From Bacteroidota bacterium (GTDB lineage: Bacteria > Bacteroidota > Bacteroidia > 2-12-FULL-35-15), in assembly GCA_003151815.1 (NCBI GenBank), contig PLYN01000041.1, positions 9,919 to 73,918 on the forward strand: a stretch of DNA of 64,000 nucleotides, written 5' to 3'. The notes under the pieces were generated by a model. The model made no database searches. It had not been told where the DNA came from and worked only from the letters and a program-made list of their open reading frames with translations. The position numbers and the translations under genes are program-made. Positions within the stretch are counted from its first letter, which is position 1. Every line of letters begins with the position of its first letter. Positions 9,664 through 58,165 of the stretch are shown piece after piece.

Positions 9664-10884
9664 TTATCCCAAATTAAAATGCTCAGTAGCCATTTCCTGA
9701 ATTGCTGTACCTATTGCCAACGATGAGGTTGCAGCCGGTGATGGAGCATTCAACACATGTATTGTATTACCATTCACTTCAATTTTAAAATCGTCAATCA
9801 TTTCTCCTTCGGGTGCTAAAGCCATTGCACGGACTCCGGCTCTGCCTGGTTTCAGATCATCCATTTCTAAGGTTGGAATCAATTTATGCAAACGTTTTAA
9901 AAAATATTTTTTTGAAAATGCGCCACGGTATTCATCCAAACCAAATTTCATATTCTTTGCAAAAAATTTCCAGGTTCCGCCAAATGAAAAAGCTTCAGCA
10001 GTATCTTTTAAAGAAAAATCTGTTTTGCCATACCCTTCGCGTTTAAAAACAAAAACAGCGTTTGGTCCGCATTCTGTTCCACCGTGTATCATCCGGGTAA
10101 AGTGTACACCTAAAAACGGATATTTAGGATTGGGTACCGGATAAATTAAATTACGGACTTTACTCAATCCTTTATCTGTCAGATCAAAATAATCACCCCG
10201 AAAACCAACAATGGCGGTATCTATTTTTGCACCTTCTTTTTTTGAAATTCTATCACTTTGTAAACCTGCACAAGTTATTATATATGTTCCTTTAAATTTT
10301 CCTTTCGGAGTGATGACCTCTGTATAACCTGCATGTTTTTCAAATGCTGTTACTTCATGACCGGTAAGCACTTTACTACCACTGAATTTTCCATGAATCA
10401 ATTCAACGTATTTTCTGGAAACATCAGCATAATCAATAATACCGGTACAACCTACCCACAATCCTGCAATGCCAATACAATACGGTTCAATTTCTTTGAT
10501 GCGTTTTGCATCAATTTTTTCTATGCCTTCAACACCATTGGCGATGCCATTGTTATATACTTTATTCATGTGCGCTAATTCGGATTCTTCGGTAGCAACC
10601 ACAATTTTCCCGCAAATATCATGTGGTATTTTATGTTCTTTTGCAAATGCCACCAACTCCCTTCTTCCATCCACACAGTTCTTTGCTTTGTATGTACCCG
10701 GCTTGTAATATAAGCCCGAATGTATCACTCCCGAATTATGGCCGGTTTGATGGGCAGCTACTACTTCCTCTTTTTCAAGAACCAGTATTTTTTTATTCGG
10801 ATATTTTACATTGATCTTATAGGCTGAAGCTAAGCCCACGATGCCTCCACCTACAATAATAATATCAAATTGATTGTTTTCCAC
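9664..10884 (-). CDS. lhgO: L-2-hydroxyglutarate oxidase/dehydrogenase (FAD-dependent)
   Basis: 406 aa, GTG start. FAD fold DIIIVGGGIVGLA and HQTGHNSGVIHSGLYYKPG closely parallel E. coli LhgO/YgaF (HQTGHNSGVIHAGVYYTPG). Confidence 0.85.
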   Translation of the reverse strand: MENNQFDIIIVGGGIVGLASAYKINVKYPNKKILVLEKEEVVAAHQTGHNSGVIHSGLYYKPGTYKAKNCVDGRRELVAFAKEHKIPHDICGKIVVATEESELAHMNKVYNNGIANGVEGIEKIDAKRIKEIEPYCIGIAGLWVGCTGIIDYADVSRKYVELIHGKFSGSKVLTGHEVTAFEKHAGYTEVITPKGKFKGTYIITCAGLQSDRISKKEGAKIDTAIVGFRGDYFDLTDKGLSKVRNLIYPVPNPKYPFLGVHFTRMIHGGTECGPNAVFVFKREGYGKTDFSLKDTAEAFSFGGTWKFFAKNMKFGLDEYRGAFSKKYFLKRLHKLIPTLEMDDLKPGRAGVRAMALAPEGEMIDDFKIEVNGNTIHVLNAPSPAATSSLAIGTAIQEMATEHFNLG

Positions 10885-10958: not shown

Positions 10959-11128
10959 GCAGATAACGGTTGGCTGGAAAATGTGCGGACTAAAAAGTAC
11001 TAAACTTTCTTAACCGATACAATTTATAAACACTTCCGTTGTGAATGGCAAACGCCAATACATTTTCTGCCGCTGAAAAAATGCGCTTGCAAATGCAATT
11101 GCTCCGCATATTTTTAAGTGTTAGTTGC
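10959..11128. repeat. Structured repeat E1 (170 bp), attC-like imperfect hairpin 3' of mazF
   Basis: Ends are gcagataac ... gttagttgc. Subterminal pairing is gaaaatgtgcggac (10977-10990) with ctccgcatatttt (11102-11114). The centre is homologous to E2 (ctgaaaaaa..ttgca..tgca). Confidence 0.6.
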
Positions 11129-11139
11129 ATGTGCATGAT

Positions 11140-11463
11140 TCAGTCAACATAGGTTTCTTGTATAGTTGTCTTAACTTTATATATTTCTTTCTCGGTTAGT
11201 TTACCAAGTATTTTAATTATCCGTTTTCTGTCTATGGTGCGTATTTGGTCAACTACTACCCAACCTTTAGTCTTGTTATGTTTTACTTCGACTCTTGTTG
11301 GATAGTGTTTAGAACTGCTTGTCATTGGTGCAATAACAATTGTCTGCAAATATTTATTCATTTCATTAGGGGAAATAATTACACATGGGCGAGTCTTTTT
11401 CATTTCACCGCCAATTGTTGGGTCAAGATTAACCAAAACAATTTCATATTGATTTAATTCCAT
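11140..11463 (-). CDS. mazF: Type II toxin, PemK/MazF family mRNA interferase
   Basis: 107 aa. YEIVLVNLDPTIGGEMKKTRPCVIISPNEMN...VIAPMTS...VVDQIRTIDRKR is the MazF/PemK SH3-like signature. Overlaps the upstream antitoxin gene by 10 nt. Confidence 0.9.
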   Translation of the reverse strand: MELNQYEIVLVNLDPTIGGEMKKTRPCVIISPNEMNKYLQTIVIAPMTSSSKHYPTRVEVKHNKTKGWVVVDQIRTIDRKRIIKILGKLTEKEIYKVKTTIQETYVD

Positions 11464-11699
11464 TCCTCTAAATTTTCGTCTTCAAAAACGTCAGCCATTA
11501 ATGATTTATCGTCACCATTTTCGTGCATTTTCTTAAATGATTTTTCCCAACCCTTTCGTGACGAAGTCTTAGGTTTTAAAATGATATAGCCCTTTTCAAG
11601 AATTAATTCCAGCGTGTCTTGAATGTTATATTTTTCAATTAATGTCTTTGATAATCGAATACCTTTAGAGTTCCCGATAGAGATAAGTGATATGTCCAT
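11454..11699 (-). CDS. mazE: Type II antitoxin, AbrB/MazE/SpoVT-type
   Basis: 81 aa. The N-terminal IGNSKGIRLSKTLIEKYNIQDTLELILEKGYIILKP is a swapped-hairpin AbrB/MazE fold motif, followed by an acidic C-tail. Translationally overlapped with mazF. Confidence 0.85.
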   Translation of the reverse strand: MDISLISIGNSKGIRLSKTLIEKYNIQDTLELILEKGYIILKPKTSSRKGWEKSFKKMHENGDDKSLMADVFEDENLEEWN

Positions 11700-11829
11700 T
11701 TTAAAATTGTGTTATTGATTAATGTTATTACAAAGTTATTACATTAATTTTAAAAGACAAAATTTATATCCAGAGGATTTCGGTTGGTGATTAAAAATAA
11801 TTGTGGATTATAATTCTTTTGATTGCAAT

Positions 11830-12001
11830 GCAACTAACGATGCAAATAGGCGAGGTTGCGATTTACTTGCACTCTCTTAAATTAATCGATAAACTTTAGT
11901 ACTGAACTTGCCGCAAATGTTTAGAAATAAATTTATACTGCTGAAAAAAAACATTTGCACTTGCACAAACTTAGCAACCTGACTTATTTGATGTTAGGTG
12001 C
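11830..12001. repeat. Structured repeat E2 (172 bp), attC-like imperfect hairpin 3' of the 140-aa orphan gene
   Basis: gcaactaacgatgcaaataggcgaggttgc (11830-11859) pairs with gcaacctgacttatttgatgttaggtgc (11974-12001). Ends are GCAACTAAC ... GTTAGGTGC. It is a direct repeat of E1 with nearly identical length. Confidence 0.65.
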
Positions 12002-12045
12002 TTGCTTGCTTTCAAATAGTTTTCGCTCAACTTCGTATTCCTTTT

Positions 12046-12468
12046 TTATTTTTCATTTGATTTTAAAATATAGCGGTCTTTAGCATGCCCACCTTCATAA
12101 TATCCAGTTTTAGTCGTTGGGCAATAAATTATTGTCTCACATAAATATCCAACTGTGTCAGAAAGTTTGTCTTCTAGATTGCAGTCGTAAGGTTCATTGT
12201 CTAAATAGTCTAATAGTGAAACACAATTTTTTGTTGTCCCAAGTTTTTTCAACTTCAAATAGATTTTGTCTGCATACTGCTGATTAGGTTCTATTTCCAG
12301 TATTTTTTGGGTGTCAAATGGATTTGATGTGTGAAATTCATTCTTGATTTTCCACCAATTCTTTTTATTTTTATAGAATTCAAGTATTCTGTCTTGCTTG
12401 TCTTTTGATACGAAGCCTTTGACAAAATTTATAAAAATTTGTTCTATATCTTCTGTTTCTTTGGTCAT
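12046..12468 (-). CDS. Hypothetical protein (orphan, cassette-like)
   Basis: 140 aa ORF with no motif I recognise. Flanked by E3 upstream and E2 downstream. Confidence 0.55.
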   Translation of the reverse strand: MTKETEDIEQIFINFVKGFVSKDKQDRILEFYKNKKNWWKIKNEFHTSNPFDTQKILEIEPNQQYADKIYLKLKKLGTTKNCVSLLDYLDNEPYDCNLEDKLSDTVGYLCETIIYCPTTKTGYYEGGHAKDRYILKSNEK

Positions 12469-12511
12469 GTTTAAATAATTCGTAATTACAATTAGATTGT
12501 CTCACAAGCTT

Positions 12512-12618
12512 GCAACTAACATATTTATATACGTTACTTTATAGTGCTTTTTCACATTTCCCACCACACTTTTTGTTGTTTCATCATTAAGGAAAAGCCG
12601 CATCACCAATAAGTTTGC
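12512..12618. repeat. Structured repeat E3 (shorter/degenerate copy, ~107 bp)
   Basis: Starts with the same tgcaactaac (12511-12520) as E2 and ends aataagtttgc (12608-12618) abutting the stop of 12619..13440. Internal similarity to E1/E2 is weak. Confidence 0.35.
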
Positions 12619-13440
12619 TCAATGTTCTTTACATTTGTCAAGTGCTTTTTTATATCCTAATTCTCCTGCTTTTTTCCAATCCGCACAGGCTCCTGCTTTG
12701 TCTTGCAAATTAGCTTTAACAATACCTCGATTGTAATAAGTTGCTGCATCATTCGGATTTAATTCAATGGCTTTGGTGTAATCAGTTAATGCGCCATTAA
12801 AATTTTGTAAATTAGCCTTTGCCACTGCACGATTGTAATAAGTTGCAGCATCATTCGTATTCAACTCAATAGATTTATTGTAATCTGCCAAAGCACCATT
12901 GTAATCCTGTAAGTCAGCTTTTACTGCACCTCTGTTGTTATAATAGAAAGTGTTATTCGGGTCAATTTTTATCGCATTATTAAAGTCCGCTAAAGCCGCT
13001 GTATTTTCGTTCAATTCGCTTTTAATGATTCCTCTGTTATAAAACGCCTCTGCATTTTGCGGATTCAGTTCAATTGTTTTACTGAAATCTGAAATTGCTC
13101 CTTTCAAGTCTTGTAATTCCTCTTTTGCAAAGGCCCTGGAATAATAGAAAGTTGCATCTTTCGGGTTAATTTTAATTGCGGAATTAAAATCTGCTGCTGC
13201 TCCGTTAAAGTCTTTTAATTCAGCTTTAACAGCGCCACGGATGTAATAGGCTTGAGCATTATTGGGGTTCAGTGCAAGGGATTTGTCAAAGTCTGTTATA
13301 GCACCTTTATAGTCTTGTAACTTAACTTTAGATCGGGCCAGATTATAATAGGTTATATCAGTTTGTCCGTAACAAGTATAAAAAAATATAAAAAAAGTTA
13401 CAGCAAAAAGGATTATTTTTTTCATGATAACTTTAATCAT
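12619..13440 (-). CDS. Secreted TPR-repeat protein
   Basis: 273 aa with a signal peptide (alternative start MKKIILFAV at 13425). Consists of ~7 consecutive 34-aa TPR units (A-x-x-D-F/Y-N/S-K-A-I-E-L/I-N-P-N...). Confidence 0.8.
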   Translation of the reverse strand: MIKVIMKKIILFAVTFFIFFYTCYGQTDITYYNLARSKVKLQDYKGAITDFDKSLALNPNNAQAYYIRGAVKAELKDFNGAAADFNSAIKINPKDATFYYSRAFAKEELQDLKGAISDFSKTIELNPQNAEAFYNRGIIKSELNENTAALADFNNAIKIDPNNTFYYNNRGAVKADLQDYNGALADYNKSIELNTNDAATYYNRAVAKANLQNFNGALTDYTKAIELNPNDAATYYNRGIVKANLQDKAGACADWKKAGELGYKKALDKCKEH

Positions 13441-14431
13441 CTATTTTCTTGTACCCAAGTTCAACAGCCTTATTGCCATCTGAAAAAGCTCCATTCATAT
13501 CCAATATTTTATATTTAACAAGTCCCCTGTAATAAAATGCCTCCGGATATATAGGTTTAATTTCAATTGCTTTATTGAAATTTGCTATTGCAGCTGTATA
13601 GTCTTTTAAATGATCTTTGGCTATTCCTCTGCTATAATAGGCAAGTTCACCATAATTTGGATTATACATTATTGCCATATTATAGTCTTGTATGGCACCT
13701 TTGTAATCATTTAATTCAGCCTTTATAAGTCCACGCATCAGGTAAGCATATTCGTCTTCCTCATTCAAATTTAACGCTTTGCTATAATCAGCTAATGCAC
13801 CTTTAAAGTTTTTTAGTTTATTCTTTAAATTCGCTCTGCTGTAATATCCGTGTTCATCAGTAGGATTAAGTTTAATTGCTTTATCGTAGTCCACAATAGC
13901 GTCCTTGTAATCAAGTAAATTTTCTTTTGATTGCCCCCTATTAAAATAAGCATATCCATCTTTCGGATTTATTTCTATCGCTTTATTATAATCTTCGATA
14001 GCACCCTTGTAATTTTTTTGAAAGTTTTTTAAAAATCCAAGACTATAATAGGCGAAACCGTCTTTTGGATTAATTTCTATTGCTTTAACAAAGTCGTCAA
14101 TTGCGCCGGAATAGTCATTGTTATTTTTTTTACAACTTCCTCTGTTGTAGTAGGCATTTCCATTTTGTGGATTTATCTCAATAACTTTACTGAAATCATC
14201 TATGGCGCCTTTAAAATCATAGATTTCACATTTAACAATTCCCCGATTCAAATAAGCCATTTCGTAAACAGGATTGAGTTCAATCGCTTTATCAAAGTCG
14301 GTTAGAGCGCCTGTGTGATCTTGTAAATCAACCTTAGCCATTCCATTCTTATAAAATTCTTCCGCATTTTGTGCAAACGAAGAGAAAACAAATAGGAGGG
14401 AAGTGAGTATGGATAATAGAGCCTTTTTCAT
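13433..14431 (-). CDS. Secreted TPR-repeat protein
   Basis: 332 aa with a signal peptide (SSFAQN) and ~9 TPR units. Overlaps the next TPR gene by 8 nt. Confidence 0.8.
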   Translation of the reverse strand: MKKALLSILTSLLFVFSSFAQNAEEFYKNGMAKVDLQDHTGALTDFDKAIELNPVYEMAYLNRGIVKCEIYDFKGAIDDFSKVIEINPQNGNAYYNRGSCKKNNNDYSGAIDDFVKAIEINPKDGFAYYSLGFLKNFQKNYKGAIEDYNKAIEINPKDGYAYFNRGQSKENLLDYKDAIVDYDKAIKLNPTDEHGYYSRANLKNKLKNFKGALADYSKALNLNEEDEYAYLMRGLIKAELNDYKGAIQDYNMAIMYNPNYGELAYYSRGIAKDHLKDYTAAIANFNKAIEIKPIYPEAFYYRGLVKYKILDMNGAFSDGNKAVELGYKKIDD

Positions 14432-57306: not shown

Positions 57307-58068
57307 ATGCCTGACAATAAAGATAAACAATGGTTTGAGAATTGGTTTAATTCACCCTACTACCATATTTTATATAAAGAGCGTAATGATACCGAAGCCG
57401 AATTATTTATTGATACCTTAATTGAATTTTTGAAGCCTAAAAAAAATGCCCGGTTCCTTGATTTGGGATGTGGAAAAGGTCGACATTCGGTTTACCTGAA
57501 TAAAAAAGGATTTTCTATTGTTGGTGTTGATTTGTCGCCTGAAAGTATAGCATTTGCTTCCCAATTTGCAAAAGAAAGTTCCAAAGAAAAAAACGGAAGT
57601 TTGGATTTTTATGTTCAGGATATGCGTAAAACAGGACGCATAAATTATTACGATTATATACTTAACCTTTATACCAGTTTCGGATATTTTGAAAATGATC
57701 GTGATGATTATTCAACCATTCACTCTGTTAGCAAGGCTCTTAAGCCGGGAGGGATTTTCGTCCTCGATTTTATGAACGCTCAAAAAGTGATCGCTAATTT
57801 AATTCCTTACGAAACAAAGATCTGCGAAGGCATTGAATTTAAAATCACCCGGAGTGTTTCAAATAATTTTATTGTAAAACAAATACAATTTTCAGACAGA
57901 GGAAAGGAATATAATTTTCATGAACAAGTTAAAGCATTGACTGTTCTTGACTTCGAGAAATATTTTGCAGCCAATAAACTTAAAATACTACATTTGCTGG
58001 GCAATTACCGGTTGGAAGAATTTAATCCGGATACTTCGGATAGGCTGATAATTGTGGGACAAAAATAA
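57307..58068 (+). CDS. Class I SAM-dependent methyltransferase
   Basis: 253 aa. Motif I FLDLGCGKGRHSVYL and post-I VGVDLS, plus GGIFVLDF. Confidence 0.8.
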   Translation: MPDNKDKQWFENWFNSPYYHILYKERNDTEAELFIDTLIEFLKPKKNARFLDLGCGKGRHSVYLNKKGFSIVGVDLSPESIAFASQFAKESSKEKNGSLDFYVQDMRKTGRINYYDYILNLYTSFGYFENDRDDYSTIHSVSKALKPGGIFVLDFMNAQKVIANLIPYETKICEGIEFKITRSVSNNFIVKQIQFSDRGKEYNFHEQVKALTVLDFEKYFAANKLKILHLLGNYRLEEFNPDTSDRLIIVGQK

Positions 58069-58161
58069 GCCCCCAACCCCTAAAGGGGAGAGGTGATAAT
58101 TTCAAAAAGAGTAAATTAATAATAAAACAATTCTTCTTCTCCCCTTTAGGGGCGGGGGCTT
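58067..58161. repeat. Near-perfect 24-bp inverted repeat filling the methyltransferase-ZIP intergenic gap
   Basis: aagcccccaacccctaaaggggag (58067-58090) versus the reverse complement of 58139-58161 = aagcccccgcccctaaaggggag (1 mismatch plus a 1-nt bulge; arms 24 and 23 nt). ~48-nt AT-rich loop. The left arm overlaps the TAA stop, and the right arm ends 5 nt before the ZIP ATG. Confidence 0.85.
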
Positions 58162-58165
58162 AAAA

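Follow-up and report, generated by a model that had tools for sequence, protein, structure and literature searches.

Gene content and repeated elements of the locus

The mazEF locus described here lies on the minus strand of a 64,000-nt stretch of DNA (the window) from the draft genome of a Bacteroidota bacterium (contig PLYN01000041.1 of assembly GCA_003151815.1; 2.5 Mb, 61 contigs, 76.6% complete), and it resembles a small integron-like array of gene cassettes. Read on that strand, it consists of two TPR genes, element E3, an orphan open reading frame (ORF) of 140 aa (12046-12468), element E2 (11830..12001), mazE (11454-11699), mazF (11140-11463), element E1 (10959..11128) and the gene of a FAD-dependent oxidoreductase (9664-10884), whose start codon lies 75 nt downstream of E1, the distal end of the array. 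An earlier note, made from the sequence alone, had given the order as orphan, E2, mazE-mazF, E1 and lhgO; the ORFs of the window and the profile matches agree with it, and the oxidoreductase gene is called lhgO-like below. MazF is a clear PemK-family toxin (PemK/MazF profile, 1.6e-31) and MazE gave a weak profile match only, while profile searches with the orphan gave no confident family match. The three genes are co-directional. Upstream of mazE lies TAACTTTG, which we take to be a Bacteroidota-type promoter; the surrounding stretch is kept in three of four congeners with mazEF homologues.

E1 and E2 are direct repeats of 170 and 172 nt, as the earlier note had stated (nhmmer E values of 5.6e-39 and 3e-28, respectively). 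A covariance model built from ten copies in the source genome scored E1 at 162.3 bits (E 2.5e-29) and E2 at 140.2 bits (E 4.5e-25). On the gene strand, E2 starts with GCACCTAAC and ends with GTTAGTTGC (GCACC-TAAC ... GTTA-GTTGC), and E1 starts with GCAACTAAC and ends with GTTATCTGC (GCAAC-TAAC ... GTTA-TCTGC). The cores ACCTAAC and GTTAGTT previously noted in E2 were recovered; those of E1 are AACTAAC and GTTATCT.

Each element had also been described as a long hairpin. Both ends do pair in the predicted folds and the stems covary, but the fold energy was no better than chance. Among the ten copies from the source genome, 13 of 31 pairs were changed on both sides, and this rose to 23 of 31 among 52 distinct sites from several genomes. 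In the latter set, 82.8% of cells were paired, compared with 31-39% when the partners were slid by 1-3 columns, and the covariation score was reached by none of 500 shuffles. On the sequence comparison, the stem structure of E1 and E2 is supported by compensatory changes rather than by energy. One helix of the model (R1) was mis-registered by one column, which slightly lowered its sensitivity and left the conclusions unaffected. Beside the TAAC/GTTA helix, an asymmetric internal loop is conserved, with 1-3 nt in the 5' arm versus 5-6 nt, often AAAAC, in the 3' arm; this loop may stand in for extrahelical bases as an orientation mark. An Rfam scan of the region returned nothing relevant.

In the source genome, iterated nhmmer searches gave 15 copies, of which about ten are full length, spread over 11 contigs; the covariance model gave 16 sites. 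The sites are typically ~145-190 nt long with ends of the form box-TAAC...GTTA-box, in which TAAC and GTTA are nearly invariant. All 15 nhmmer copies sit 3' of a co-directional ORF, and the neighboring ORFs look like toxin-antitoxin, restriction-modification and ATPase-like genes, judged by sequence alone and not by profile search. The position of these copies and the kind of genes beside them do not fit the outcome that the earlier note had named as fatal to its reading, namely, a high-copy repetitive extragenic palindromic (REP) or terminator family behind ordinary housekeeping genes. One further, weak model match in the window, at 58060-58164, was rejected as an unrelated GC-rich palindrome with a perfect stem (AAGCCCCCAACCCCTAAAGGGGAGAGG ... 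CTCCCCTTTAGGGGCGGGGGCTT) outside the attC-like family.

Of 24 genomes from the same genus, 19 had sites detected by the covariance model, which also gave weaker matches in other genera of the class. Many of the congener matches form co-oriented arrays with a spacing of 0.5-2 kb, such as seven sites in one 8-kb contig (G019:C27) and the starts of three contigs of genome G013. Size classes of ~190, 144 and even 52 nt are mixed within arrays, the family members span about 52-195 nt, and all size classes share the ends nnCTAAC-A-GCACCTA ... TAGCTGC-AAAAC-GTTA-nnnGC. The motif GACAGTTTTGTGC is kept in the 3' half of several ~144-nt and ~190-nt congener sites (about 6 of 17 printed; e.g., L031:7815-7958), and E1 carries a weaker form of it, GAAAGTTTAGTAC (window 10985-11010). 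Its role might be that of a Bacteroidota-type promoter that faces outward and serves the next cassette, or it might bind a protein.

Group II intron reverse transcriptase genes were found within or beside arrays of two unrelated carriers (L166:6356-7666 and L085:15747-17063), an arrangement reminiscent of group IIC-attC introns in classical integrons.

The split-box rule and the limits of the cassettes

In integron arrays, the crossover splits each site within its 3' core; whatever follows GTT is therefore part of the next cassette and is complementary to that cassette's own 5' core. The same relation was examined at every site in 13 arrays, with the 5 nt that precede TAAC and the 5 nt that follow GTTA taken as boxes. 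At 21 of 32 junctions, the 5' box complemented the 3' box of the site upstream at all five positions, the mean being 4.16 of 5. When paired with the 3' box of its own site, it was perfect only once among 50 sites, with a mean of 1.94; with the downstream site it was perfect in none of 32. Random box pairs were perfect in 2.4% of cases (permutation P <= 1e-4). These results indicate, at the level of sequence, that the sites are split at GTTA, the five following bases being part of the next cassette and complementary to its TAAC-proximal box.

At the window junction from E2 to E1, the 5' box of E1, GCAAC, is the exact complement of the 3' box of E2, GTTGC (5 of 5 positions), and matches its own 3' box, TCTGC, at 3 of 5. 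Under the box rule, this match fixes the limits of two cassettes. The orphan cassette (12519-11838, 682 nt) comprises the orphan ORF together with its own site E2, ending at the G of GTTA; the mazEF cassette (11837-10967, 871 nt) comprises mazE, mazF and their own site E1, with the same end point in GTTA.

For four cassettes of the source genome, three of them solo (on contigs C34, C52 and C13) and one inside an array on contig C11, an exact 8-mer made of TTA and the reverse-complemented box was present upstream within 6 kb. In three of the four, 18-30 nt separate the 8-mer from the start of the site-adjacent ORF; on C13 it lies ~3 kb upstream, ahead of a block of four ORFs. The C11 array (C11:93188-98742, at a contig end) is a longer one of at least four cassettes, with one site, at about 96700-96870, overlooked by the model. 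Its first three junctions obey the box rule, and its cargo looks, by sequence and without profile search, like an AAA-ATPase gene and other defense-like genes.

The reading of E3 (12469-12618) as a third hairpin copy was rejected, as alignment, BLAST, nhmmer and the covariance model with its filters off gave no match between E3 and the repeat family. What the stretch does contain is GTTAGTTGC (12520-12512, minus strand), set within TATAAATATGTTAGTTGCAAGC. The junction sequence is TATAAATATGTTAGTTGC, with the core TATAAATATG|TTAGTTGCAAGC. The element as delimited here (12508..12618, minus strand) begins immediately 3' of the stop codon of a TPR gene and forms the proximal boundary of the array. 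It reads GTATATAAATATGTTAGTTGCAAGCTTG and aligns with the junction GTTATATAAGTAAGTTAGTAGCAAGCTTAAAG of genome G013. Sequences of the type TATAAA-n-A(A/T)GTTAG-box-GCAAG occur just 3' of the stop codon of a recombinase gene in G013, G004, G027 and G033, and in the two genomes checked, G013 and G004, the junction box matches the site of the first cassette. The left junctions of seven solo cassettes of the source genome are of the same kind as E3. This likeness identifies E3 as a putative attI-like insertion junction; by sequence, the array would start there and continue with the orphan cassette, E2, the mazEF cassette and E1. A loose genome-wide expression for attI-like junctions gave 307 matches and was dropped as too unspecific.

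The cassettes also recur as units. The orphan has 58 homologues with 47-85% identity, in Lacibacter, Aquiflexum, Saprospiraceae, Lentimicrobium and metagenome bins. In L166 (a 6.5-Mb genome) and L167 (Aquiflexum sp. LQ15W), the orphan cassette begins with GTTA|GGTGCAAGCTT and ends with ...GCCAGCACC-TAAC, which includes the GCACC box, followed by a ~140-nt site of the local type. Its box in both genomes, GGTGC, is exactly the one predicted from GCACC of E2. The same orphan gene is thus joined to different, genome-specific sites, as is the case with attC sites in sedentary integrons.

A second mazEF copy was found in the source genome on contig C19 (96444-97336). Its boxes are the same, and its overall identity of 87% is exceeded within the genes. 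Ahead of this copy (96438-97340) is a hybrid site, E2-like in its 5' part and E1-like in its 3' part, and after it comes no more than the initial ~14 nt of its own site (GCAACTAATACTTA). Four congeners have mazEF homologues in other surroundings, one of them between a 144-nt and a ~52-nt site. The comparison of strains suggested in the earlier note thus gave a positive result, in that cassette content differs between genomes.

The array-linked recombinase and its relation to known systems

In G013, the lhgO-like homologue lies divergently beside the gene of a 375-aa tyrosine recombinase, P0001. Co-directional ORFs follow the recombinase gene, with a site at the end of each group, and the other intergenic gaps show sites that the model had not detected. 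The order recombinase, attI-like junction and co-directional site-closed cassettes was also found in G004, G027 and G033, the last of which belongs to another genus. The recombinase genes are often at contig ends, a position that we read as the result of repeated arrays breaking the assemblies. Relatives of the recombinase with 36-58% identity are found in many Flavobacterium species, Chitinophagaceae, Cytophagales, Bacteroidales and a few organisms outside the phylum, and the model placed sites of ~144 nt downstream of many of them and on a Chryseobacterium plasmid.

Other arrangements were also seen. The recombinase homologues of L149 (Melioribacteraceae) and L142 (Bacteroidales) have their sites upstream and on the opposite strand, which is the classical divergent integron layout. 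The recombinase match on G002:C32 was rejected as an array head, as this 359-aa homologue (L049:7994-11128) heads a different, apparently integrative mobile element, in which it is followed by a serine recombinase gene and small ORFs. Upstream of the homologue are two weak sites on the opposite strand, an atypical layout.

In the window, the place held by the recombinase gene in relatives is taken by the two adjacent TPR-repeat genes (12619-14431; 273 and 332 aa), which adjoin the attI-like junction and are built of 102-nt repeat units (8 copies, 61-75% identity).

P0001 passed the model NF040815 (site-specific tyrosine recombinase/integron integrase) with 231.6 bits at a cutoff of 220. With the integron integrase model TIGR02249 it failed, scoring 216 bits at a cutoff of 265 and matching in two stretches. 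Residues 104-272 of P0001 align to residues 10-178 of the Vibrio cholerae integrase VchIntIA (2A3V) and residues 294-371 to 243-320, which leaves 21 residues where VchIntIA has 64 (residues 179-242). In VchIntIA, K209, Y210, W219, P232, H240 and H241 contact the extrahelical bases of attC (PMC3053210), and by the alignment this segment is absent from P0001, which carries instead an N-terminal extension of ~100 residues. By these comparisons, the array-linked recombinase belongs with Xer/XerA-like enzymes and not with integron integrases. In the 41 genomes searched (the source genome and 40 relatives, including 24 congeners), no integron integrase scored above the TIGR02249 cutoff.

Recombinase-associated arrays of orphan immunity genes have been described in Bacteroidales by Ross et al. 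in 2019 (preprint 10.1101/471110). As published, these rAID-1 arrays are confined to Bacteroidales, are defined by a recombinase with at least 44% identity (to BF9343_RS08045) and by immunity gene cargo, and have repeats "reminiscent of integrons" (10.1101/471110). A rAID-1 cluster of Bacteroides ovatus, obtained by a tblastn search of plasmid records, consists of the integrase followed by SMI1/KNR4, Imm26, PoNe/PoNi and Tdi1 immunity genes. Over 267 aa, with three gaps, the recombinase of this cluster and P0001 share 43% identity, and the profile pattern is the same. The intergenic sequences of this cluster are 60-80-nt hairpins of the form box-TAAC...ATTA-box, and 8 of 10 junctions, counted by eye from the one after the recombinase gene, are perfectly complementary to the next site, with the other 2 at 4 of 5 positions. 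The earlier note had named rAID arrays as a precedent, and the homologous recombinase and the array that follows the same box rule lend this weight.

The two systems have in common a homologous recombinase that lacks the IntI insert, a conserved junction after its stop codon, co-directional short genes of low GC content and repeated intergenic sequences. The array described here differs in its environmental Bacteroidota host, in its sites of 145-190 nt rather than 60-80 nt with GTTA rather than ATTA ends, in its toxin-antitoxin and orphan cargo, and in having no recombinase in the window. With no recombinase at the locus, the rAID-1 identity limit can be applied to the G013 protein only as a proxy, and that protein is 43% identical to the one of B. 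ovatus. The published requirement for two or more co-directional downstream genes with a GC content of at most 41% agrees with the 31.9% of the array, in a genome that itself has only 34.6%. On this sequence evidence, rAID-1 and the system in the window belong to one family, of which the published rAID-1 definition covers the Bacteroidales branch only.

The likeness to sedentary chromosomal integrons, such as the V. cholerae superintegron with its V. cholerae repeats (VCRs), and to attC site clusters in which an integron integrase is missing (CALINs) comprises co-oriented, mostly promoter-less cassettes, imperfect AAC...GTT palindromes, cassette-wise complementarity of the boxes as expected from a crossover in the 3' core, homogeneity of the sites within a genome, toxin-antitoxin cargo, recombinase-less clusters and solo sites. 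Unlike those integrons, the system described here has a recombinase with an N-terminal extension and without the IntI-specific domain (the additional domain around patch III), a recombinase gene co-directional with the cassettes, an asymmetric unpaired spacer, sites of up to 195 nt and attI-like junctions scattered over the chromosome. The "inverted-integrase" integrons of the Treponema denticola group (10.1101/2022.02.06.479319) likewise have an integrase gene co-directional with the cassettes, but their integrases keep the IntI additional domain.

Interpretation of the array and alternative explanations

We consider it very probable, at roughly 85%, that E1 and E2 are attC-like, structure-specific sites of an integron-like gene capture system of Bacteroidota and that each closes one mobile cassette. 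The earlier note had proposed an integrase-less, integron-cassette-like array and, in view of the length of the elements, possibly a distinct cassette system. The first idea is strengthened by the co-oriented, recombinase-linked arrays of relatives, the box rule and the recurring cassettes, and the second by the linked recombinase without the IntI insert.

In the proposed mechanism, a cassette would excise as a circle, rejoining its two boxes into one complete hairpin site. For the mazEF cassette, the predicted circular junction is ...CCAACCG joined to TTAGTTGCATTG, and for the orphan cassette it is ...GCATCG joined to TTAGTTGCAAGC. The recombinase would act on a folded single strand, together with the attI-like junction or another site, close to GTTA, and recombination with the attI-like junction near GTTA would add new cassettes at that junction. 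The recombinase gene may have been lost or may lie in the unassembled 23% of the genome. As it is absent here, the array would be either frozen or served in trans. The array may be a fossil, and mazEF probably stabilizes it.

Several observations weigh against this interpretation. Eleven of the 32 junctions are imperfect, partly owing to sites between the compared pair that the model missed, and the E3 box, GTTGC, is one substitution away from the GGTGC predicted by the 5' box of E2 (GCACC). The fold energies of E1 and E2 relative to shuffled sequences are not significant (z = -1.8 and -1.4), so energy alone is no proof of structure. A P0001-like recombinase was found neither in the window nor in the 76.6%-complete assembly, where the best match was a 31% identical Xer-like protein; the earlier note had likewise seen no integrase at the locus. 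No empty site was recovered, as the region upstream of the lhgO-like gene was not syntenic in the 29 congeners compared, among which a recombinase lies upstream of this gene in G005, G013 and probably G063 only. Excision and insertion by the system are themselves steps that we infer.

The best-surviving alternative, still an improbable one, is that the array is a remnant of a canonical integron, that is, a CALIN with ordinary attC sites whose true IntI is elsewhere in the genome or lost. The TAAC...GTTA cores fit RYYYAAC...GTTRRRY, in E2 as ACCTAAC and GTTAGTT, the box rule of integrons holds, and a toxin-antitoxin pair is part of the cargo. By description rather than by an attC model, the locus might also count as a CALIN, defined as at least 2 attC sites close together with no IntI nearby, in having two sites 871 nt apart and no recombinase in the window or the assembly. 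At 170 and 172 nt, however, E1 and E2 exceed the attC range of 57-141 bp, in a family that spans ~52-195 nt. None of the 41 genomes holds a match above the integron integrase cutoff, and the recombinase that is linked to such arrays has a gene co-directional with the cassettes and 21 residues against the 64 of VchIntIA, without the segment that contacts extrahelical bases (PMC3053210). Surveys with IntegronFinder point the same way, as they find almost no integrons in Bacteroidetes; IntegronFinder 2.0 reported a single complete integron in Bacteroidetes proper (Salinibacter ruber), besides the known ones of Chlorobi and Ignavibacteriae (10.1101/2022.02.28.482270).

Slightly less probable still is a dispersed REP-, terminator- or miniature inverted-repeat transposable element (MITE)-like repeat, spread by transposition or kept for a terminator or 3' untranslated region role, without cassette recombination. 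Such a repeat would account for 16 dispersed copies always downstream of genes, with terminal inverted repeats and a conserved internal hairpin. It would not be expected to have a 5' box that complements the upstream site rather than its own 3' box, nor does it explain arrays linked to a recombinase or one gene on different local sites in different genomes. There was no Rfam match. The MITE version was rejected, as no target site duplications are visible. A secondary terminator role for the sites is possible.

The pdif modules of Acinetobacter plasmids depend on Xer recombinases and short, double-stranded dif-like sites of alternating orientation, and they carry small modules that typically include toxin-antitoxin pairs. 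The system described here resembles them in the Xer-type recombinase implicated and in the mobilization of small toxin-antitoxin-bearing modules, but pdif modules have no hairpin sites, no dedicated recombinase at the head of an array and no split-box rule. That the host XerC/XerD act here on short dif-like sites flanking each module is very doubtful, since, for all the Xer-likeness of the linked recombinase and the Xer-like genes retained in the source genome, the sites are 52-195-nt hairpins with covarying stems and not 28-bp sites, are co-oriented and not alternating, and are headed in arrays by a dedicated recombinase with a ~100-aa N-terminal extension.

For the integron-like gene capture system, a broader proposal can be put forward only tentatively, and we regard it as somewhat less likely to hold than to fail. 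This is an IntI-independent, phylum-wide analogue of integrons in Bacteroidota, with rAID-1 as its gut branch and a Xer/XerA-like enzyme that would act on folded hairpins without an extrahelical-base-reading domain. It would operate as a distributed platform of scattered attI-like pads (TATAAAnATGTTAG), each carrying a few cassettes or a single one; one recombinase gene would serve these pads in trans, or none would once it had been lost.

The data point to a widespread, parallel gene capture system in the phylum with toxin-antitoxin cargo and, judging only from ORF sequences or the annotation of homologues, restriction-type and metal resistance-like genes as well. Integron surveys would miss it in Bacteroidetes because they require the IntI domain. 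The box rule alone makes recombinase-less arrays and solo cassettes recognizable. What is new is that the link to rAID-1 has been put to a test, that there is a class of long sites (170-190 nt) and that the picture is one of scattered attI-like junctions. The data also connect the system with the rAID-1 arrays found in human gut Bacteroides, and a recombinase of folded sites that lacks the IntI insert bears on the origin of integrons from Xer-type enzymes.

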